Shown here piece by piece: positions 3,458-56,105 of a stretch of 64,000 bases of DNA. The position numbers and the translations under genes are program-made. Each line of letters opens with the position of its first letter. Within the stretch, counting starts at the first letter, position 1. The DNA is taken from the NCBI GenBank assembly GCA_043812955.1, contig JBDRLN010000061.1:7231-71230 (forward strand), read 5' to 3'. The notes beneath the pieces were generated by a model. The model was not told the DNA's origin, did no database searches, and saw only the letters and a list, made by a program, of their open reading frames with translations. This DNA comes from Candidatus Omnitrophota bacterium. Its GTDB lineage: Bacteria; Omnitrophota; Gorgyraeia; Gygaellales; Profunditerraquicolaceae.

Positions 3458-4381
3458 TTACTGAATATTTACTTGAGCTATCAGCTGACGGATAGATTCT
3501 GCGGATTCCTGAAATTTGTTTTTTTCTTCCGGGCTTAAACTTAATACCACTATATCTTCTATGCCTTTTTTACCGATAACACAAGGGACTCCGATAGTAA
3601 TATCTTTGCAGCCATATTCTCCGTTTAGATAGGCGCAAACACCTCGGGTGCGTTTTTCATTTGCAATAATCCCCTCTATCAGTTCGACAATTGCCGCTGA
3701 AGGGGCAAAAAAAGCGCTTCCGCTTCCCAATAAAGATATGATCTCTAAACCCCTGCTTTTTGTTTTATTTACCAGATCTTCCATGGTTTTTTCGTCGACA
3801 ATCTCGGAAATCGGTTTTCCCTTAATATAGCTAAACCTGGGCAATGGTATCATCGCTTCGCCATGGCTGCCAATAACCATACTTTCGACATCTTTGGCCG
3901 GAACCTTTAATTCTTTACTGATTATATTATTAAACCTGGCAGCGTCAAGACTTGAACCCATGCCCAAGACTTTGCTGGGATTAAAACCAGTGGTTTTTAA
4001 TGCCAGGTAGGTCATCACATCTAAAGGATTAGTAACTACAATTAAAATCGCTTTAGGAGAGAGTGTTTTTATATTAATGCATACTTCTTTGATTATTTGG
4101 GCATTTTTACTGATTAAATCTTCGCGGGTCATTCCTGGCTTACGGGTGAGGCCGGCTGTTATCACCACTATATCCGAATCCCGGATCTGATTAATATCCT
4201 CGCTCCCGGCTATTTTGTAATCGGATTTGCTCAACGATTTGGAGTCTTCTAAGTCATACGCCTTGCCGCAGGCCAGACCCTTGGCAACATCAACTAGGAG
4301 AACTTCTCCTAAGCCTTTTTGGACGATGCGCAGGGCCGTAAGGCTTCCTACATTACCAGCGCCTATTATTGATATCTTCAT
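3458..4381 (-). CDS. mdh: Malate/lactate dehydrogenase family (likely malate dehydrogenase)
   Basis: 307 aa. MKISIIGAGNVGS Rossmann start. LDH/MDH family layout, and the gene sits with other TCA-type genes. Confidence 0.75.
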   Translation of the reverse strand: MKISIIGAGNVGSLTALRIVQKGLGEVLLVDVAKGLACGKAYDLEDSKSLSKSDYKIAGSEDINQIRDSDIVVITAGLTRKPGMTREDLISKNAQIIKEVCINIKTLSPKAILIVVTNPLDVMTYLALKTTGFNPSKVLGMGSSLDAARFNNIISKELKVPAKDVESMVIGSHGEAMIPLPRFSYIKGKPISEIVDEKTMEDLVNKTKSRGLEIISLLGSGSAFFAPSAAIVELIEGIIANEKRTRGVCAYLNGEYGCKDITIGVPCVIGKKGIEDIVVLSLSPEEKNKFQESAESIRQLIAQVNIQ

Positions 4382-4408: not shown

Positions 4409-4463
4409 GGGGTCAGAATTATTTTTTACTTACATTTAGAATAAAAAAAATAATTCTGACCCC
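4409..4463. repeat. Family-A palindromic element, copy 2 (perfect 19-bp arms)
   Basis: GGGGTCAGAATTATTTTTT (4409-4427), a 17-nt loop, AAAAAATAATTCTGACCCC (4445-4463). It lies between the icd-like stop and the mdh start. Confidence 0.85.
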
Positions 4464-4470
4464 ATTATTT

Positions 4471-5553: not shown

Positions 5554-5566
5554 CTTTAACCTGCTC

Positions 5567-5597
5567 CACCCCGTAGGTGTATTACACCTACGGGGTG
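5567..5597. repeat. Family-B hairpin, copy 1 (CACCCCGTAGGTGT-att-ACACCTACGGGGTG)
   Basis: Perfect 14-bp stem with a 3-nt loop, 14 nt upstream of the icd-like ATG. A twin lies at 18387-18417. Confidence 0.85.
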
Positions 5598-5619
5598 TAA
5601 ATTAGACTTCTAAATATAC

Positions 5620-6123
5620 TTATACTTTAGGCAGATTTCCATGCCTCTTGATGTATTTCACAATGCCGCCTTCTTTTAATAATTCTTGCATAAATCCCGG
5701 CAACGGTTTAATCTCCAGATAGATATTTTTGGTAGTATTCCAGACTTTTCCGGCATCCAGGTCTAATTCAATAATATCCCCTGGGCTTATCTTGTCGGTA
5801 TCAGTCTCCACTAAAAGCAGGCCTATGTTAAAACTGTTCCGGAAGAATATCCGGGCAAATGATTTTGCCAATATCGCGATAATTCCCGACTCTTTTATAA
5901 CTAAAGGCGCCTGCTCGCGACTTGAACCCATTCCGAAATTATTTCCCGCTACCAGTATAGACTGGCCGGGAATTATCTTTTTTGGAAAATCCGGGTCAAT
6001 ATCCTCCATTATATGTTTGGCTAATTCTTTTAGGTCGGTAATAGAGAATTTATACCTTCCCGAGATAATAACATCAGTATTAATATTGTCGCCTATTTTA
6101 ATTGTCTTGCCTTTGATAATCAT
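5620..6123 (-). CDS. leuD: 3-isopropylmalate dehydratase small subunit (LeuD / aconitase-family swivel domain, short archaeal type)
   Basis: 167 aa, MIIKGKTIKIGDNINTDVIISGRY..., typical LeuD type 2. Confidence 0.8.
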   Translation of the reverse strand: MIIKGKTIKIGDNINTDVIISGRYKFSITDLKELAKHIMEDIDPDFPKKIIPGQSILVAGNNFGMGSSREQAPLVIKESGIIAILAKSFARIFFRNSFNIGLLLVETDTDKISPGDIIELDLDAGKVWNTTKNIYLEIKPLPGFMQELLKEGGIVKYIKRHGNLPKV

Positions 6124-6132
6124 AACTTTATT

Positions 6133-6186
6133 GGGGTCAGAATTATTTCTTCTTTATTATACTTAGAAAAAAATAATTCTGACCCC
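6133..6186. repeat. Family-A palindromic element, copy 3
   Basis: GGGGTCAGAATTATTTCTTC ... GAAAAAAATAATTCTGACCCC, with one mismatch. It lies between the pilT stop and the leuD start. Confidence 0.8.
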
Positions 6187-6193
6187 AATTCCC

Positions 6194-7240
6194 TTATAGT
6201 TGCCTAAACTCTTCAATATTCTTGGCCTTGGACATAGCCATTTCCAAAGTAATAATTCCGCTCTGGTACATCTCTTTTAAACATTTATCCATTGTCCTCA
6301 TCCCGTATTGGCTCCCAGTCTGCATCAAAGTAGGGATTTGCTCGATCTTTTGCTCACGGATAAGGTTTCTTATGCCTGAGGTGGCAATCATTATCTCAGT
6401 GGCTAAAACCCTCCCCCTTCCTGAGGCTTGCGGAAGTAGCAATTGAGAAATTACACCCTGCAAACAATCGGATAACTGTAATTTAACCTGAGCCTGCTGG
6501 TGCGGCGGAAATACATCTATTATCCTTTCTATAGTCTGCGGCGCGTCAGGCGTATGCAAAGTTGCTAAAACAAGATGTCCGGTCTCCGCGGCTGTAAGAG
6601 TAGTGGCGATAGTCTCAAGGTCGCGCATTTCTCCTACTACTATAACATTAGGATCCTGCCGCAACGCATGACGCAAGGAATCAGCAAAAGAGCGGGTATC
6701 AGCATAAATCTCTCTCTGTTTAATAACGGCCTTCTTATTCGAATGAATAAATTCAATCGGATCTTCAATACACATTATTAAGCATTCCCTCTCTTTATTA
6801 ATAAGATCGATCATTGCTGCTAAAGTAGTAGTCTTGCCTACTCCGGTAGGCCCGGTTACTAAAACCAGGCCATTAGGCTTACGGGCTAATTCAATAGCTA
6901 TAGGAGGCAAGCCTACATCTGCCATGATCGGAATTTTAATGGGGATTCGCCTAAAAGCAGCCTCTACTGAATTTTTCTGCATATGTACATTTACCCTGAA
7001 CCTGTCTAAACCCGGTAAGGCCAGAGAAAAATCCAGCTCCAGGTCCCGTTCAAATACTTCTTTCTGGACGTCACTTAAAACACTATAAATTACTTTCTTA
7101 AGGATCTCCTTGTTAAAAACCGGCAGGATTGTCCTTTGCAGTTTTCCGTCAATACGTAATATTGGCGGCTCATTATCGGTGAAATGCAAGTCAGAAGCTT
7201 GTTTTTCTATACATAATTCCAGCAAATCCCGTATTTCCAT
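6194..7240 (-). CDS. pilT: Type IV pilus retraction ATPase PilT/PilU family
   Basis: 348 aa. MEIRDLLELCIEKQASDLHF start, Walker A GPTGVGKTTT, PilT-like C-terminal region. Confidence 0.85.
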   Translation of the reverse strand: MEIRDLLELCIEKQASDLHFTDNEPPILRIDGKLQRTILPVFNKEILKKVIYSVLSDVQKEVFERDLELDFSLALPGLDRFRVNVHMQKNSVEAAFRRIPIKIPIMADVGLPPIAIELARKPNGLVLVTGPTGVGKTTTLAAMIDLINKERECLIMCIEDPIEFIHSNKKAVIKQREIYADTRSFADSLRHALRQDPNVIVVGEMRDLETIATTLTAAETGHLVLATLHTPDAPQTIERIIDVFPPHQQAQVKLQLSDCLQGVISQLLLPQASGRGRVLATEIMIATSGIRNLIREQKIEQIPTLMQTGSQYGMRTMDKCLKEMYQSGIITLEMAMSKAKNIEEFRQL

Positions 7241-12835: not shown

Positions 12836-12853
12836 TTTATTTCCTCCTTATAT

Positions 12854-12920
12854 CGGTTTTCGGTTTACGGTTTTCAGTTTACGGTATTGGCCGCTAACCG
12901 ATAACCGCTAACCGATAACC
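12854..12920. repeat. Family-D element, copy 1: tandem CGGTTTACGG-type units followed by complementary CCGATAACCG-type units
   Basis: cggttttcggtttacggttttcagtttacgg ... ccgctaaccgataaccgctaaccgataacc. Left and right halves are imperfect reverse complements. It sits just upstream of the rpsM SD. Confidence 0.75.
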
Positions 12921-12924
12921 TTAG

Positions 12925-16204: not shown

Positions 16205-16467
16205 TAATAACCTCTGGTATAATCTTCAGGTATAAATCTTAGGGATTATACCTGATTACTGAGATTAATAAAGATTACTGCGATTAAACCATTAATCGCC
16301 TTATTAGACAACTTTGTTACTAAAGTTTAGTAATAACCCTATCGGTTATAGAGTCTCTATTTTTAATCTCTGTAATCTCACTTTTCCCGCTAGTCGCGGG
16401 ATCCCGCCAGATAAGAGATTATTGAGCGGGATAATCATTGTAATCAGACATCCTTACTTCTTTCTCA
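16205..16467 (-). repeat. Family-C structured spacer (263 nt) between rplO and secY
   Basis: It shares its whole architecture with the rpsL-rpsG spacer at 29797-29961 (8-bp GACATCCT...AGGATGTC hairpin, then AGATTACAGAGAT, then an ~85-nt block). A 100-nt insert with overlapping GC palindromes is unique to this copy. Confidence 0.8.
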
Positions 16468-18352: not shown

Positions 18353-18386
18353 GAAGCTTACTCCTTTACCTTTTTATTGAACACTA

Positions 18387-18417
18387 CACCCCGTAGGTGG
18401 AGTCCACCTACGGGGTG
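18387..18417. repeat. Family-B hairpin, copy 2 (CACCCCGTAGGTGG-agt-CCACCTACGGGGTG)
   Basis: Perfect 14-bp stem between rpsH and rplF. It differs from copy 1 by a compensatory T:A to G:C change at the loop-closing pair. Confidence 0.85.
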
Positions 18418-18426
18418 GAAATGGTA

Positions 18427-18822
18427 TTACCAGATATACCCAATGACCTCGCCGCCGGCCCTTTGTTCCCGGGCTTCCTTATCCGTCAAAATACCTTTAG
18501 ATGTCGAAATAATCGCCAAACCTCTGCCCCGCAAAACATACGGAATTTTATCATGGGTAACATATTTACGCAACCCCGGCCTGGATACGCGTTTTATACC
18601 GCTGATTACGCATTTCTTACCGCTGTATTTTAGATAGACCCTTAAAGAACCCTGTTTTTTATCCTCGATTAATTTAAAATTGTCTATGTATTCTTCTCTC
18701 TTTAATATCTCCAGAATACATTTAACAACCTTACAAGCAGGAATATCCAAATTCTCTTTTTTAGCCATCATCGCGTTTCTTATGATAGTAAAAGCATCAG
18801 CTATAGAATCTGTCCTAGACAT
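18427..18822 (-). CDS. rpsH: Ribosomal protein S8
   Basis: 131 aa, [17 protein letters not shown]... Confidence 0.9.
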
Positions 18823-23857: not shown

Positions 23858-23866
23858 GTTTTGTCT

Positions 23867-23933
23867 CGGTTTGCGGTTTGCGGCTTTCGGGTTTCGGCCT
23901 AAAACTTTTCCCGTACACCGAACACCGATAACC
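23867..23933. repeat. Family-D element, copy 2
   Basis: cggtttgcggtttgcggctttcgggtttcgg ... cccgtacaccgaacaccgataacc. It sits between rplW and rplB. Confidence 0.75.
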
Positions 23934-23939
23934 AATTGT

Positions 23940-27135: not shown

Positions 27136-29232
27136 TTAACGTTGTTTTTGTCCTGAAGAGGCAAAACCCGATATAATTTTTTCAGATATATATAAAGGCA
27201 CCTCAGTGTAGTATGAGGGCTCCATTGTATAAGACGCGCGGCCCTGAGTCAAAGACCTGGATACCGTAGCGTAATTAAATATTTCAGCCAGGGGGACAAA
27301 TGTCTTGATCGCCCGGACATTAGCCCTGGGGTTGATCGAGACTATCTTGGCCCGACGAGAGCTTAAATCACCGATTATCACCCCCATAAATTCTTCAGGA
27401 ACAATTATCTCCATATTCATGATCGGCTCTAATAATACCGGATGGGCCTTGCGCATGCCGTCGGATAAAGCGATACTGGCAGCCATTTTAAAAGCCATTT
27501 CCGAGGAATCTACTTCATGAAACGATCCATCCACTAGTATAACCTTAACATCGGTAACCGGGTAATTAGCTAATACCCCGCTCTTGGCCCGGTCAAAAAT
27601 ACCGTCTTTTACCGAAGGTATAAACTCCTGGGGGATCGCCCCGCCTTTTATTTTATTTTCAAATGTGATTCCGGCGCCCGGTGCCTCCTGAGGCTCTATC
27701 TCAATAACTACATGTCCGTATTGACCCCTGCCGCCGGATTGCTGGATAAATTTTCCGGTAGAGGTAACTTTCTTAGTAATAGTCTCCCGGTAGGCGACTT
27801 CCGGAAACCCGGTCTGGACTTGGACATTAAATTCCCTAAATATCCTATCGGCAATAATCTCCAGATGTAATTGCCCCATTCCTGATATTACAGTCTGCCC
27901 GGTTTCATGGTTATAATTTACCCTGAAAGACGGGTCCTCTTCTACTAATTTATGCAAAGCCATACCCAATTTTTCCTGGTCATTCTTGGTCTTAGGCTCG
28001 ATCGCCTGCTGAATCACTGGCTCAGGAAAACGCATCGCCTCAATTAATATTGGGTTAGACTCTTCACAAAGCGTATCACCGGTTTTAGTGTCTTTTAAAC
28101 CCACGGCAGCTACAATATCGCCGGCAAAAGCCGATTCGATTATCTCTTGGCGGTTAGCGTGCATTCTCAATAATTTAGTAATTCTTTCTTTTTCTCTTTT
28201 GGATGCGTTATAAATATATTTACCTGAATTTAAAGTCCCGGAGTATATCCGGATATAATTGAGTTTACCAACAAAGGGATCAGTAGCGACCTTAAAGCAG
28301 AACGCACAAAAAGGGGCTTTCTCGCTAACCAGGATCTCCTCGAATTCGCCAGTCTTAGGATTGGTCCCTTTGATCGGAGGAACATCCTTAGGAGACGGAA
28401 GGTAATCACCGACGGCATCCAAGAGCATCTGAACGCCTTTATTTCTGAATGAAGAACCACAAAGAACTGGAATAAATTTATTCAAAGACACCGTCCTACG
28501 GATCACTTCTTTAATTTTAAGCGTAGTAATTTCTTGCTGGTGAAGATAAATCTCCAACATCTCGTCATCAACTTCAGCCAACTTCTCAATCAATAGGTTG
28601 CGGTAATGCTGTGCATCTTTCTTCAATTCTTCGGGTATCTCCAAAACCTCAAATTCCTTGCCGGTCTCTTCTTTATAGACTATAAGCTTATTCTCAACCA
28701 GATCGACTAGACCGTTAAAATTCTCTGCCTGGCCAAAGGGAAGCTGAATAGCTGCAGCGTTTGCCCCTAACATTTTATGCATCTGGTTAATTGTTTCTAT
28801 GAAATTCGCGCCGGTTCGGTCCATCTTGTTGACAAATGCGATCCGGGGTACACCGTAACGATCAGCCTGACGCCAGACTGTCTCTGATTGGGGCTCTACC
28901 CCGCCTACTCCGCAAAATACTATAATGGCCCCGTCTAAAACCTTAAGCGACCTCTCCACTTCCACGGTAAAATCAACGTGTCCGGGAGTATCGATAATAC
29001 TGATATAAAAATCCTTCCATAAACAGGTAGTAGCGGCAGCGGTAATAGTGATACCCCTCTCCTGCTCCTGAGCCATCCAATCCATTGTCGCTGTGCCTTC
29101 ATTAACCTCGCCTATCTTATAGGTCCTGCCGGTATAATAAAGGATCCGCTCGGTAGTAGTCGTCTTACCAGCGTCGATATGGGCGATGATCCCGATATTC
29201 CTGATCCTGTCTAATGGTATATGTCTATTCAT
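27136..29232 (-). CDS. fusA: Elongation factor G
   Basis: 698 aa. [13 protein letters not shown] and DTPGHVDF motifs. Confidence 0.95.
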
Positions 29233-29240
29233 ATTTTTCC

Positions 29241-29313
29241 GGGACGGTTCTCAAACCAAAGCTAAAGTGTCCCTTTTTTGGGGACAGTTTAAGATCAGTT
29301 TCAGAACCGTCCC
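29241..29313 (-). repeat. Family-G nested hairpin element, copy 1 (outer GGGACGGTTCT/AGAACCGTCCC, inner TGTCCC-tttttt-GGGACA)
   Basis: It fills the rpsG-fusA spacer (29233-29325) and ends 8 nt before the fusA ATG. Its homologue at 55376-55448 is about 85% identical. Confidence 0.8.
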
Positions 29314-29325
29314 TGCATTTAAAAT

Positions 29326-29796
29326 TTACCACCTAAAATGGGCAAAGGCCTTATTTGAATCTGCCATTTTATGTGTATCATCTCTCTTCTTAATCGCCGA
29401 ACCTTCTCCCTTATACGCTGACATGATCTCGTCGGCCAATTTCTCTTTCATGGTTTTACCTTTTTTATTCTTGGCAAAATCCCTTATCCAGCGTAAAGCG
29501 ATCGATGCCCCGCGGTCCTGCCTTACTTCGATCGGAACCTGATAAGTCGCTCCACCTACCCTACGGGGCTTTACTTCTAAGCGCGGCCGGACATTATCAA
29601 TAGCTTTATTAAAAACCTTTATCACATCTGGTTCATTAAGGTATTTTTTTACGGATTCAAATGCTCCGTAAACTATCCTTTCAGCCACCGATTTTTTACC
29701 TTCCAACATAACCATATTGATAAATTTACCAACTATCTTATTGTTATATTTGGGATCTGATAAAGTTTCTTTCTTGAATACCCTTTTTCTTCTCAT
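29326..29796 (-). CDS. rpsG: Ribosomal protein S7
   Basis: 156 aa. Confidence 0.9.
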   Translation of the reverse strand: MRRKRVFKKETLSDPKYNNKIVGKFINMVMLEGKKSVAERIVYGAFESVKKYLNEPDVIKVFNKAIDNVRPRLEVKPRRVGGATYQVPIEVRQDRGASIALRWIRDFAKNKKGKTMKEKLADEIMSAYKGEGSAIKKRDDTHKMADSNKAFAHFRW

Positions 29797-29961
29797 TTAT
29801 TCTCTTTCCTGGTATAATCATCAGGTATAAATTTTGGGGATTATACCTGATTACTGAGATTAATAAAGATTGCAGCGATTAAACTTCTGTCTTTTATCTC
29901 TGTAATCTGCCTTTTAATCACTGTAATCAGACATCCTCATTACTTCTTATTACAGGATGTC
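29797..29961 (-). repeat. Family-C structured spacer (165 nt) between rpsL and rpsG
   Basis: Homologous to 16205-16467. The last ~85 nt before the rpsG ATG are ~93% identical to the last ~85 nt before the secY ATG. Confidence 0.8.
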
Positions 29962-38241: not shown

Positions 38242-38310
38242 TTACGGTTAGCGGTGTTCGGTTTACGGTTATCGGTGTTCGGTCTAATCGCTCACCCGAT
38301 ACCCGCTAAC
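38242..38310. repeat. Family-D element, copy 3
   Basis: tacggttagcggtgttcggtttacggttatcggtgttcgg ... cacccgatacccgctaacc. It sits between rplJ and rplL. Confidence 0.75.
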
Positions 38311-38320
38311 CTAAAACCTA

Positions 38321-54636: not shown

Positions 54637-55359
54637 CTATTTTAATCTCAAGGCCTGTCTTAAAATAAGCTTCTGCTCATATAAAGCCTTGCCTATTATT
54701 ATTCCGGTCAAACCAAACTTCTCTAGTTTTTTTAAACCAGCTACATCTTTAAGACAGGAAACGCCACCTGAAGCAATAACTCCTATTCTCGATTTTTGCA
54801 TAAGATCTTTTATGCCCCGCGTATTCGGGCCCTTAAGCATACCATCTTTTGATGTATCGGTATAAATAATTTCTTTAAACCGTAAACCTTTTAAATATAC
54901 GGCAAAGGTCAACAGGTCAAATCCCTTACATGTCCCTTTCCACCCCCTAGTTTTTATCCGGCTCCCTTTAGCGTCAATACTAACAATAATCCGGGACCCA
55001 AACTTATTACAAGCTTCTTTTAAGAAATCCCTATCCTCAATTGCCCTGGTCCCTAAAACCACCCGGTATACGCCAAAATTAAGCAATTCTTTTATTGTCT
55101 GAATATTTCTTACTCCGCCGCCAAATTCAACCGGTATATTTACGGAATTTAATATTTTCTTTAATAGCGACTTATTCTTAAGGACGCCGGAAAAAGCTCC
55201 GTCTAAATCCACCACGTGCAATAATTTAGCCCCCTGCCTTTCCCAACCTAAAGCGATCTCACAGGGATCCTGAGAATATTCAACCTTATCTTTAACCTTG
55301 CCCTGGCATAGCCTTACTACACAACCGTCTTTTAAATCTATTGCCGGTATTATTAGCAT
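54637..55359 (-). CDS. hisA: ProFAR isomerase HisA
   Basis: 240 aa, MLIIPAIDLKDGCVVRL... Confidence 0.9.
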   Translation of the reverse strand: MLIIPAIDLKDGCVVRLCQGKVKDKVEYSQDPCEIALGWERQGAKLLHVVDLDGAFSGVLKNKSLLKKILNSVNIPVEFGGGVRNIQTIKELLNFGVYRVVLGTRAIEDRDFLKEACNKFGSRIIVSIDAKGSRIKTRGWKGTCKGFDLLTFAVYLKGLRFKEIIYTDTSKDGMLKGPNTRGIKDLMQKSRIGVIASGGVSCLKDVAGLKKLEKFGLTGIIIGKALYEQKLILRQALRLK

Positions 55360-55375
55360 ATTTCCATATCAGGCA

Positions 55376-55448
55376 GGGACGGTTCTCAAGCCAAAGCTAA
55401 ACTGTCCCCAAAAAAGGGACACTTTAAGATCAAGTTAAGAACCGTCCC
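55376..55448 (-). repeat. Family-G nested hairpin element, copy 2 (central palindrome inverted relative to copy 1)
   Basis: The outer GGGACGGTTCT / AGAACCGTCCC arms match copy 1. The centre reads TGTCCCCAAAAAAGGGACA, against TGTCCCTTTTTTGGGGACA in copy 1. It fills the hisH-hisA spacer. Confidence 0.8.
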
Positions 55449-55454
55449 TGCATT

Positions 55455-56105
55455 TTATAATTCAACGAAGTTTTTCAATATTTTCAGTCCCACAGCCTGG
55501 CTTTTCTCAGGATGAAACTGCACACCGATTATATTATCCTGCCAGACCACAGAAGCAAAATTAATCCCATAATCAGTAGTGGCGGCAACTACGGCTTTAT
55601 CCTCAGGCTGCGGATAATAAGAATGGCAGAAATAAACATAAGGCTTCTCTGACAGCCCCCTTAATAACGGGCATTCCTTTATCCCTGGCCCCTTATCACC
55701 TTCCTGTCGCTGAGGCAGACTTATCCCTGTATTCAACTGGTTCCAACCCATATGCGGGACTTTTAAACCCCTACCAGGAACAAATTTTTTTACCTCTCCT
55801 CTTAATACTCCTAAGCCTTTAACGCCATTAGATTCTTCGCTAGTTTCAAATAACAGCTGCATGCCTAAACATATTCCTAAAAATATCTTCTTATGTTTTA
55901 TAGCATCAATAACAGCTGAAATTAAACCCTGCCTATCCATCTCGGATACAGCGTCAGCAAAAGCCCCCACACCGGGAAGGACTATCTTTTCGCATTTATT
56001 CAATACTTCAGGCTTATTAGTCAATAAAACCTTAGCGCCTAAAGACTTTAGAGCCTTTTGAACGCTATGGATGTTGCCCATTCCATAATCAATTATCCCG
56101 ATCAT
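55455..56105 (-). CDS. hisH: Imidazole glycerol phosphate synthase glutamine amidotransferase subunit
   Basis: 216 aa. GICLGMQLL catalytic Cys and the HPEKS motif. Confidence 0.9.
   Translation of the reverse strand: MIGIIDYGMGNIHSVQKALKSLGAKVLLTNKPEVLNKCEKIVLPGVGAFADAVSEMDRQGLISAVIDAIKHKKIFLGICLGMQLLFETSEESNGVKGLGVLRGEVKKFVPGRGLKVPHMGWNQLNTGISLPQRQEGDKGPGIKECPLLRGLSEKPYVYFCHSYYPQPEDKAVVAATTDYGINFASVVWQDNIIGVQFHPEKSQAVGLKILKNFVEL

Follow-up and report, generated by a model that had tools for sequence, protein, structure and literature searches.

Introduction

In Escherichia coli, repetitive extragenic palindromic sequences (REPs) and bacterial interspersed mosaic elements (BIMEs) protect the 3' ends of mRNAs, and a REP located within about 15 nt of a stop codon lowers the output of the upstream gene. 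REPs and the tyrosine transposases that go with them (RAYTs, TnpA-REP) were reportedly the subject of work by Nunvar in 2010. REP doublets, termed REPINs, have been described in long-hairpin and 'clover' folds (PMC3116915, PMC3337134). In 2013, Di Nocera et al. reported TIRYT genes with terminal inverted repeats (TIRs) that share the word GGGGWSAS and can form dispersed dimeric repeat families (PMC3733652). Subclass 2.1 of the tyrosine (Y1) transposases, as defined by Quentin et al. in 2018, was reported to be without REP-like sequences (PMC6006769); its signature comprises NH[VYF]H, W[EQ]/FQ, YIELNP or Y[IV]HLNP and a length of about 238 amino acids (PMC6006769, Table 1). Here we examine a 64-kb stretch of a contig from a Candidatus Omnitrophota bacterium (JBDRLN010000061.1; hereafter the window), in which one nested hairpin occurs twice, once between rpsG and fusA and once between hisH and hisA.

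Quite probably, this element is a mobile repeat of the REPIN type, non-autonomous, palindromic and composed of two REP-like units in inverted arrangement, with a link to a Y1 (HUH tyrosine, IS200-like) transposase. Judged from orthologous loci, the copies in the window appear to have landed recently between genes, at sites that are empty in the closest relatives, and they were probably mobilised by a tyrosine (IS200-like) transposase. The element is better described as a mobile piece of palindromic DNA that intercistronic spacers tolerate, and that may incidentally be of use there, than as a specific regulator of fusA and hisA.

Results

The element is absent from orthologous sites of the closest relatives

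Searches with elongation factor G and HisA assign the window to Candidatus Omnitrophota. The spacer between rpsG and fusA measures 93 nt in the window, compared to only 6 nt (TAA-ATATAA-ATG) in the relative whose elongation factor G (EF-G) is 95% identical (L121; contigs from other genomes carry L numbers) and 7 nt in L122 (EF-G 79%). In two further relatives that have the same EF-G (L123 and L124, 78% identical to that of the window), this spacer is occupied by another repeat, as a single copy and as a tandem pair, respectively. At the second site, hisH and hisA overlap (ATGnTGA) and leave no spacer in L246 (HisA 84%) or in L247 and L248 (both HisA 73%). The element is present at the same hisH-hisA junction in L245 (HisA 85%), with the same outer flank AAAATGCA and a 51-53-nt interior that is inverted relative to the window copy. 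As the nearest relatives lack the element at these sites, each window copy is an insertion and not a conserved part of its operon. The sequence-only reading, an earlier inspection of this DNA, had proposed that the element is maintained by selection for fusA and hisA. This is contradicted by the empty orthologous sites, by the many unrelated loci at which the element occurs and by its random orientation. Of the two observations which that reading had named as speaking against itself, a lack of orthologous conservation is what we find at the closest relatives, whereas a restriction to two copies is not, as more than 120 copies exist at unrelated loci.

The different repeat found in the rpsG-fusA spacer of L123 (1927-2000, one copy) and L124 (1582-1702, two tandem copies) is CTTCTGCTGCGCAGAAGTAAATTGGATGCGATTTAGACT. 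In the window, the neighbouring rpsL-rpsG spacer (29797-29961, 165 nt) also holds repeat copies (93% and 87% identical), which recur at 16214-16289 and 16432-16462; in L121 this spacer has only 15 nt. With another repeat in the rpsL-rpsG spacer and the element in the rpsG-fusA spacer, the str operon took at least two different insertions.

Anatomy of the two window copies

The positions of both copies and of the surrounding genes, all of which lie on the minus strand, are:

29233..29325, minus strand: copy 1 spacer between rpsG and fusA, 93 nt, the whole intercistronic spacer with the inserted element (open reading frame (ORF) map, Pfam S7 and EF-G match)
29241..29313, unstranded: copy 1, a 73-nt nested hairpin with outer arms 29241-29251 and 29303-29313 (inverted repeat)
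29263..29291, unstranded: copy 1 core, 29 nt, TAAAGTGTCCCTTTTTTGGGGACAGTTTA; minimal flipped segment 29267-29287
29314..29320, unstranded: TGCATTT flank beside copy 1, a direct repeat common to both window copies and L245
55360..55454, minus strand: copy 2 spacer between hisH and hisA, 95 nt, the whole spacer with the inserted element (ORF map, HisA, GATase)
55376..55448, unstranded: copy 2, a 73-nt nested hairpin with outer arms 55376-55386 and 55438-55448 (inverted repeat)
55398..55426, unstranded: copy 2 core, inverted relative to the copy 1 core; minimal flipped segment 55402-55422
55449..55455, unstranded: TGCATTT flank beside copy 2, overlapping the hisH stop codon (55455-55457)
29326-29796, minus strand: rpsG (Pfam Ribosomal_S7)
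27136-29232, minus strand: fusA (EF-G)
55455-56105, minus strand: gene at the hisH position (GATase family)
54637-55359, minus strand: hisA (HisA)

Both hairpins share the outer arms GGGACGGTTCT/AGAACCGTCCC, which pair perfectly over 11 bp and are the same in both copies, and each fills its spacer, as had been recognised from the sequence alone. The size of 85 nt given at that time does not hold: the repeated hairpin comprises 73 nt, and 79 nt in copy 2, where GCA/TGC lengthens the stem. The window contains the outer-arm 11-mer four times, where 0.74 occurrences are expected, and none of 100 shuffles yielded four; the 21-nt core is found once on each strand, with none expected. On the mRNA, the copy 1 hairpin starts 12 nt past the rpsG stop and ends 8 nt short of the fusA ATG, and the copy 2 hairpin starts 6 nt past the hisH stop and ends 16 nt short of the hisA ATG. 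The TGCATTT flank is the 5' side on the mRNA strand, where it reads AAATGCA.

Folding of the spacers confirmed the strong structure that had been supposed, with energies of -39 to -49 kcal/mol and z scores of -7.3 to -8.7 whichever strand is folded (-41.8 and -48.7 kcal/mol for the two mRNA strands, z about -8). At the gathering threshold, Rfam identified only two tRNAs in the whole window and did not match the element, and at the E-value threshold the element gave only sub-threshold look-alikes of miRNA precursors, which are spurious. A literature search for the 10-mers returned unrelated primer matches only.

The element belongs to a large family of inverted doublets

A scan of species-representative genomes with the two arms and a metagenome scan with one arm plus the inner hairpin each returned at least 120 loci. 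Among the matches listed for the species-representative scan, nested relatives come from six Omnitrophota metagenome-assembled genomes (MAGs) and one Planctomycetales MAG, and the same arms build quite different hairpins or tandem arrays in Clostridia, Bacillaceae, Micropruina/Propionicimonas, Coriobacteriia, Bacteroidales and others. We parsed 122 copies, whose modal length is 73 nt; the base preceding the hairpin is A in 96% and the base following it is T in 95% of them. Their consensus runs from A through GGGACGGTTCT, CAA-NN-C-[AAAGC, or AATCG/AATCT/GTTCT/AAAGG]-(A/T)RAA-(C/G), TGTCCC(C)-loop-(G)GGGACA and the mirrored arm to AGAACCGTCCC and T. Since the sequences of arm and inner stem were prescribed by the search patterns, only the arm outside the pattern is informative about conservation; the second outer arm, which lies outside the metagenome pattern, is still perfect in most copies.

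The inner 11-mers AGAACTGTCCC and GGGACAGTTCT are near-copies of the outer arms, so that one 11-mer, GGGACRGTTCT, is present four times in each element and alternates in orientation (-> <- -> <-). A unit of about 33 nt is made of GGGACRGTTCT, an 11-nt loop and AGAACYGTCCC, and two such units, placed head to head, are separated by a short loop. The element is thus an inverted doublet of a hairpin unit of about 33 nt, and singleton half-units occur among the arms outside nested copies. In 57 gap-free copies, 83% of the cells of the nested fold are paired compared to 32-52% in slid controls, and compensatory changes are found at 14 pairs; this covariation bears out the idea that stem complementarity is kept. 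The nested fold has conserved internal loops at columns 15/59 and 20-22/52-54. The alternative fold into two 11-bp hairpins reaches 84% paired cells against 42-54% in slid controls.

Related genomes link the repeat to Y1 transposases

In L193, a Y1_Tnp gene (Pfam E-value 8e-13; best NCBIfam match the REP-associated tyrosine transposase model) is enclosed by two inverted ends starting AGGGACGGTTCT. Further Y1 genes, whose Y1_Tnp matches pass the Pfam cut-off, were located by tblastn of fetched DNA. One of them lies between six tandem GGGACGGTTCT and five AGAACCGTCCC words in L006 (Clostridiales UBA3678) and encodes a protein that is 37% identical to an Omnitrophota Y1 protein, and another abuts a GGGACGGTTCT hairpin in L118 (Clostridia MAG). 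In L147, an Omnitrophota-type contig that also holds a nested copy, the Y1 gene has a GGGGACGGTTCT word on one side and, on the other, a hairpin composed of that word. The homologs of the L147 protein number about 1,900, and all source-named ones belong to Omnitrophota except one from Aminicenantes. Four of these homologs that lie on long contigs were examined. The Y1 genes of L250, L251 and L252 have GGGGACGGTTCT about 70 nt upstream of the start and its complement at or just past the stop, the downstream word being degenerate in L252, and in L249 a co-varied word, GGGGACGCTCCT, stands on both sides of the gene. GGGGACGGTTCTATTTTTC and its complement flank the transposase genes. Overall, word-bearing flanks accompany the Y1 genes of five Omnitrophota contigs (L147, L249-L252), of L193 and of two Clostridia contigs (L006, L118).

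The L147 protein (231 amino acids) contains NHTH, WQ and YIELNP, and by these motifs the Y1 proteins fit subclass 2.1 (RAYT group 1, 'TIRYT'). The middle residue T of its NHTH is outside the HuH residues listed in Table 1 of PMC6006769.

L250 encodes a second Y1 paralog (5681-6373), 36% identical to the first and bracketed by GGGGTCAGAATTATTTTT, with the flanking motif GGGGTCAGAATT. The window contains a second hairpin family, GGGGTCAGAATTATTTTTT-loop-AAAAAATAATTCTGACCCC, at 2104-2158, 4409-4465 and 6133-6188, whose arm is the word bracketing this paralog; this family is probably the cognate repeat of another transposase. Upstream of both Y1 paralogs we noticed a conserved leader, GTTAGATTTT-CCTCCTTTTACGTCTATTAATAGTAGAAGGAGG-ATTTTT-ATG (3940-4000 and 5620-5680 in L250; 3930-4000 in L251 and L252). 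It is an anti-Shine-Dalgarno/Shine-Dalgarno hairpin, which is predicted to mask the ribosome-binding site. About 500 nt from a nested copy, a Y1_Tnp-like protein of 328-348 amino acids without obvious HxH is encoded at loci that are orthologous in three contigs (L210 8209-9213, L215 3486-4532, L224 5128-6114), and it may be a domesticated derivative.

Other arrangements of these words were also seen. Among the matches listed, GGGGACGGTTCT hairpins or tandem-inverted arrays occur in more than 100 genomes of Clostridia, Bacillaceae, Actinomycetota, Bacteroidales and others (e.g., L006 4449-4564 and 5689-5783, L031 4832-4957, L048 795-900). Palindromes of tandem units of about 10 nt, CGGTTTNCGG, followed by their complements are located in the window at 12851-12921, 23864-23934 and 38249-38319 and resemble the tandem-then-inverted GGGGACGGTTCT arrays of Micropruina and Clostridia. 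At 5564-5619 and 18384-18439, the window holds hairpins CACCCCGTAGGTG-loop-CACCTACGGGGTG with GTAG, the tag of canonical RAYT-type REPs. In L190 (2463-4362) and L229 (1226-3043), inverted half-elements about 1.8 kb apart enclose a gene for a TPR/membrane protein; they either bound a cassette or are two copies independent of each other.

Flanks of the element and the question of the transposition mechanism

In a search of 119-120 copies for target-site duplications, with offsets either fixed or free, direct repeats in the flanks were not in excess, and no copy-specific palindromic extension past the A...T flanks was found. Between paired arms we detected no DDE transposase but instead ordinary genes, a toxin-antitoxin pair or a Y1 transposase. 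Likewise, the regions between paired copies of L086, L108, L002 (Clostridia/Coriobacteriales) and L190/L229 contain no transposase and hold ordinary genes or a toxin-antitoxin pair. These results bear on a classical MITE (a miniature transposable element with inverted repeats), that is, a deletion derivative of an insertion sequence with a DDE transposase, moved by cut-and-paste and bounded by terminal inverted repeats and a target-site duplication. Such an origin would agree with terminal inverted repeats that are perfect over 11-14 bp and with a marginal excess of one-mismatch 7-mers across the flanks (61 versus 48.8 +/- 5.4). However, given that neither fixed-offset nor exact duplications are seen and that in eight contigs the arms bracket Y1 rather than DDE transposase genes, we consider a MITE unlikely.

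Several observations do not sit easily with a REPIN-type element moved by a Y1 transposase. Imperfect 7-nt A/T-rich direct repeats border both window insertions (GGTAAAT/GGAAAAAT and GAATTAT/GAAATAT) and L245 (GAATAT), and an extra AAATGCA stands outside the hairpin at the window sites and in L245; both features would be more naturally explained by a cut-and-paste DDE mechanism. The 64-kb window itself contains no Y1 transposase gene by tblastn, so that the link to the transposase rests on related genomes. There, the best NCBIfam match of the Y1 proteins is NF047646 with E-values of 4e-9 to 1e-20, at 36-74 bits and thus below the equivalog cut-off of 80. The repeats beside the Omnitrophota Y1 genes share only the 11/12-mer with the element and continue with ATTTTTC instead of CAANNCAAAGC. 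The element also differs from REPINs in having no 5' GTAG tag at the hairpin foot, where the flank is (T/C)A followed by GGGACGG, and is therefore not a canonical GTAG-REP. Finally, the events of transposition, cleavage and inversion are deduced from sequences.

We also considered the CGTC-tagged REPs of Di Nocera et al., as the arm contains CGTC, but those have an unpaired tag, stems of 8-9 bp and loops of 4-5 nt. Readings as attC, CRISPR or tRNA-like sequences were dropped on sequence.

Genomic context and orientation relative to transcription

Of 86 copies with both neighbouring genes called, 81 lie between genes on the same strand, 3 between convergent and 2 between divergent genes. The distance from the upstream stop codon to the start of the hairpin is typically -1 to +7 nt, with a family median of 3 nt, and TA of the flank together with the first G of the element often makes TAG. 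The next start codon follows the hairpin end at a median distance of 12 nt (mode 9 nt), so that the ribosome-binding site is left just outside the stem. On the sense strand the downstream flank is purine-rich and C-poor, and Shine-Dalgarno-like words are present in 22/81 cases versus 0/81 on the mirrored side; the upstream flank is an A-rich stop region. With this composition of stop regions and ribosome-binding sites, the flanks beyond +/-2 are features of the host.

The orientation of the interior is random relative to transcription: the folding energy of the sense strand minus that of the antisense strand averages -0.03 kcal/mol (split 37:43), and the arm types are split 35:25. This argues against a strand-specific RNA function. 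The idea that G.U wobble pairs mark the mRNA strand as the selected one was rejected, since it fits copy 2 only (-48.7 versus -39.0 kcal/mol), fails across the family (mean -0.03, 37:43) and is at odds with the opposite orientation of L245 at the same site. The sole bias concerns the loops, which on the sense strand are A-rich twice as often as T-rich (48:24).

A cis-regulatory structured RNA or a DNA cruciform, selected for its effect on the expression of fusA and hisA or on the half-life of their mRNAs, could account for the very stable hairpins of the mRNA strand (-41.8 and -48.7 kcal/mol), for their position 6-12 nt past the stop and 8-16 nt before the start codon (family median 12 nt from hairpin end to next start) and for the compensatory changes in the stems. 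Yet the same element occurs beside more than 100 unrelated genes, is missing at both orthologous sites in the nearest relatives and has no preferred orientation; the hisH-hisA junction even holds it in one orientation in the window and in the opposite one in L245. As no Rfam family was matched either, apart from the spurious miRNA hairpins below threshold, selection for such a function has little probability in our view.

The core is inverted between the copies and at orthologous sites

Read in the same direction, the hairpins of copies 1 and 2 are identical at 60/73 positions, and the mismatches are concentrated centrally. Hairpin positions 23-51 (TAAAGTGTCCCTTTTTTGGGGACAGTTTA) match at 29/29 between the copies as reverse complement only, and a position-by-position comparison showed that the asymmetric bulge regions match in direct orientation only. 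A G.G versus C.C mismatch beside the inner stem flips along with the loop, therefore the difference is a true segmental inversion and not just a free loop. Of the two possibilities raised from the sequence alone, an inverted core or a selected pairing with a free loop, the first is upheld by the reverse-complement match, and the co-flipping mismatches leave no room for a mere free loop.

We compared 16 pairs of copies with homologous flanks on both sides. The whole interior is inverted between L245 and window copy 2 (45 flipped versus 27 direct matches, of 53 positions), between L174 and L177, whose flanks are about 95% identical (44 versus 37), and between L143 and L195 (43 versus 32). In L148 versus L183 the shell is swapped and the orientation of loop and core is kept, and in L210 versus L215 one arm has been converted, which turns the element into a perfect palindrome. 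Across the family, the orientations of core and shell are nearly independent (45 versus 32, p = 0.17). With inversions at nested levels of orthologous sites, where the whole interior, the shell alone or the core alone is turned round, the core flip in the window is one instance of a recurrent process. These comparisons suggest that the flip is a recurrent by-product of the nested inverted repeats, although its mechanism is one that we infer.

The flip also bears on an intrinsic terminator or attenuator in operons, which the core orientation would toggle by placing a half-hairpin before either a U-run or an A-run. In both copies, a simple scan picks out the inner hairpin together with a T-rich tail on the sense strand. 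The first half-unit of copy 2 (-9.7 kcal/mol) is followed by U6, half-units of the family consensus reach -13 to -18 kcal/mol, and the excess of A-rich over T-rich sense-strand loops (48:24) is as expected if U-runs were selected against. Nevertheless, only 3/86 copies lie between convergent genes, one third of the copies keep T-rich loops, and the need for fusA and hisA, the genes downstream, keeps pace with that for the rest of their operons. In addition, the half-hairpin has a loop of 15-19 nt and would be out-competed by the full hairpin. We therefore regard a toggled terminator as very unlikely.

A programmed site-specific inversion switch or a recombination site resembling integron attC would fit the occurrence of inverted-repeat-bounded segments in both orientations at orthologous sites, and the imperfect hairpin with conserved unpaired bases is reminiscent of attC. 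The attC box consensus is RYYYAAC/GTTRRRY; TCTCAAC/GTTGAGA of the element agrees with it at only 6/7, and the base after CAA is variable. The arms are 29-51 nt apart, which is too close for duplex synapsis, and single copies are scattered in core operons instead of forming cassette arrays. Near the copies we saw neither an invertase nor an integrase gene, although IntI was not searched systematically. Such a site is extremely improbable.

Discussion

A REPIN-type element mobilised by a Y1 transposase could have spread in the following way. The enzyme would move the repeats as single-stranded hairpin DNA and create no target-site duplication, and copies would persist nowhere but in the short gap that separates a stop codon from the following ribosome-binding site. 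The inserted element could fold either as one long nested hairpin or as two hairpins side by side. Its core may flip because nested inverted repeats allow the segment between an arm pair to be inverted in place; template switching during replication, recombination from arm to arm or re-joining on the opposite strand by the Y1 transposase are conceivable routes. Once inserted, the element would be co-transcribed and form a stable mRNA hairpin, which may incidentally uncouple or buffer the expression of the flanking genes, for example through the loss of hisH-hisA translational coupling or as a barrier to 3' exonucleases.

A more far-reaching version of this mechanism, to which we assign a small probability, holds that the flips are made by the enzyme itself: the Y1 transposase would recognise the outer GGGACGG and the inner GGGGACA and re-join the excised strand reversed, so that the element acts as an invertible module tuning the downstream gene. 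If this were true, the orientation of the core would set an mRNA half-hairpin followed by either a U-run (attenuating) or an A-run (neutral) and thereby tune the gene that follows, here fusA and hisA, in a heritable and reversible manner. It would also mean that, across phyla, a conserved DNA word is the cognate of the subclass 2.1 Y1 transposases.

For a mobile REPIN-type palindrome, the findings have consequences for annotation: where spacers of Omnitrophota operons are structured, those of the str operon included, they would have to be read as recent insertions of selfish palindromes and not as conserved riboregulators. Insertions that split the overlapping, translationally coupled hisH and hisA show that structure is tolerated between a stop codon and the next ribosome-binding site in compact genomes. 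The comparison of orthologous sites offers a clean natural record of nested in-place inversion and arm homogenisation in a REPIN-like element, which bears on the evolution of such palindromes and on how foldability persists. Y1 transposases of subclass 2.1, reported without REP partners (PMC6006769), are here bracketed by a 12-mer that builds abundant families of dispersed hairpins, and the same 11-mer recurs beside such Y1 genes in Clostridia.

Segments within short inverted repeats that occur in both orientations while the stem is kept are familiar from the minute inversions of chloroplast genomes and from 'flip/flop' of the inverted terminal repeats of parvoviruses. Here, however, the flips occur at two nested levels and in a bacterial mobile repeat. 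With REPs and BIMEs of E. coli the element has in common that a stable intercistronic hairpin is placed just past a stop codon (6 and 12 nt in the window; family median 3 nt). By analogy, a comparable effect on gene expression can be predicted for Omnitrophota.

The element agrees in many respects with the REPIN/RAYT system. Short intergenic palindromic units form inverted pairs that fold into a long hairpin or, alternatively, into a 'clover'; singleton units occur as remnants, and copies are dispersed between genes (at least 120 loci per collection; two copies in the window). A Y1 gene is bracketed by the repeat, here in related genomes, paralogous transposases of one genome each have their own repeat family, target-site duplications are missing, and copies persist at orthologous sites across species. 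In contrast, the conserved word of our element, GGG(G)ACGGTTCT, is located inside the stem. Its protein fits subclass 2.1 (RAYT group 1), whereas REPINs go with groups 2 and 3, and its host is an Omnitrophota bacterium, whereas REPIN hosts are Proteobacteria. Moreover, we observe nested inversion in place, whereas for REPINs only two doublet configurations, TT-AA and AA-TT, are given in PMC3116915 and PMC3337134, and neither of these papers mentions flips or inversions.

The resemblance to TIRtrons, the TIRYT genes with their TIRs, lies in a RAYT-like Y1 gene located between inverted repeats with a GGGG-W-S-A-S word and in the TIR word being at the same time a moderately abundant dispersed repeat, found in dimers and clusters. 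The inner stem GGGGACAG and the word GGGGTCAG of the other window family and its paralog both fit GGGGWSAS at 8/8 positions, and GGGGACGG does so at 7/8. The families in PMC3733652 come from Stenotrophomonas, Acidobacteria and other groups, unlike those in Omnitrophota and Clostridia described here. A 73-nt nested double palindrome, a conserved internal loop between hetero-arms and the conservation of one 11-mer across phyla are absent from that work (PMC3733652). In conclusion, the element is of a known kind, a mobile palindrome like REPINs and TIR repeats, and its phylum and architecture are new relative to the cited literature.

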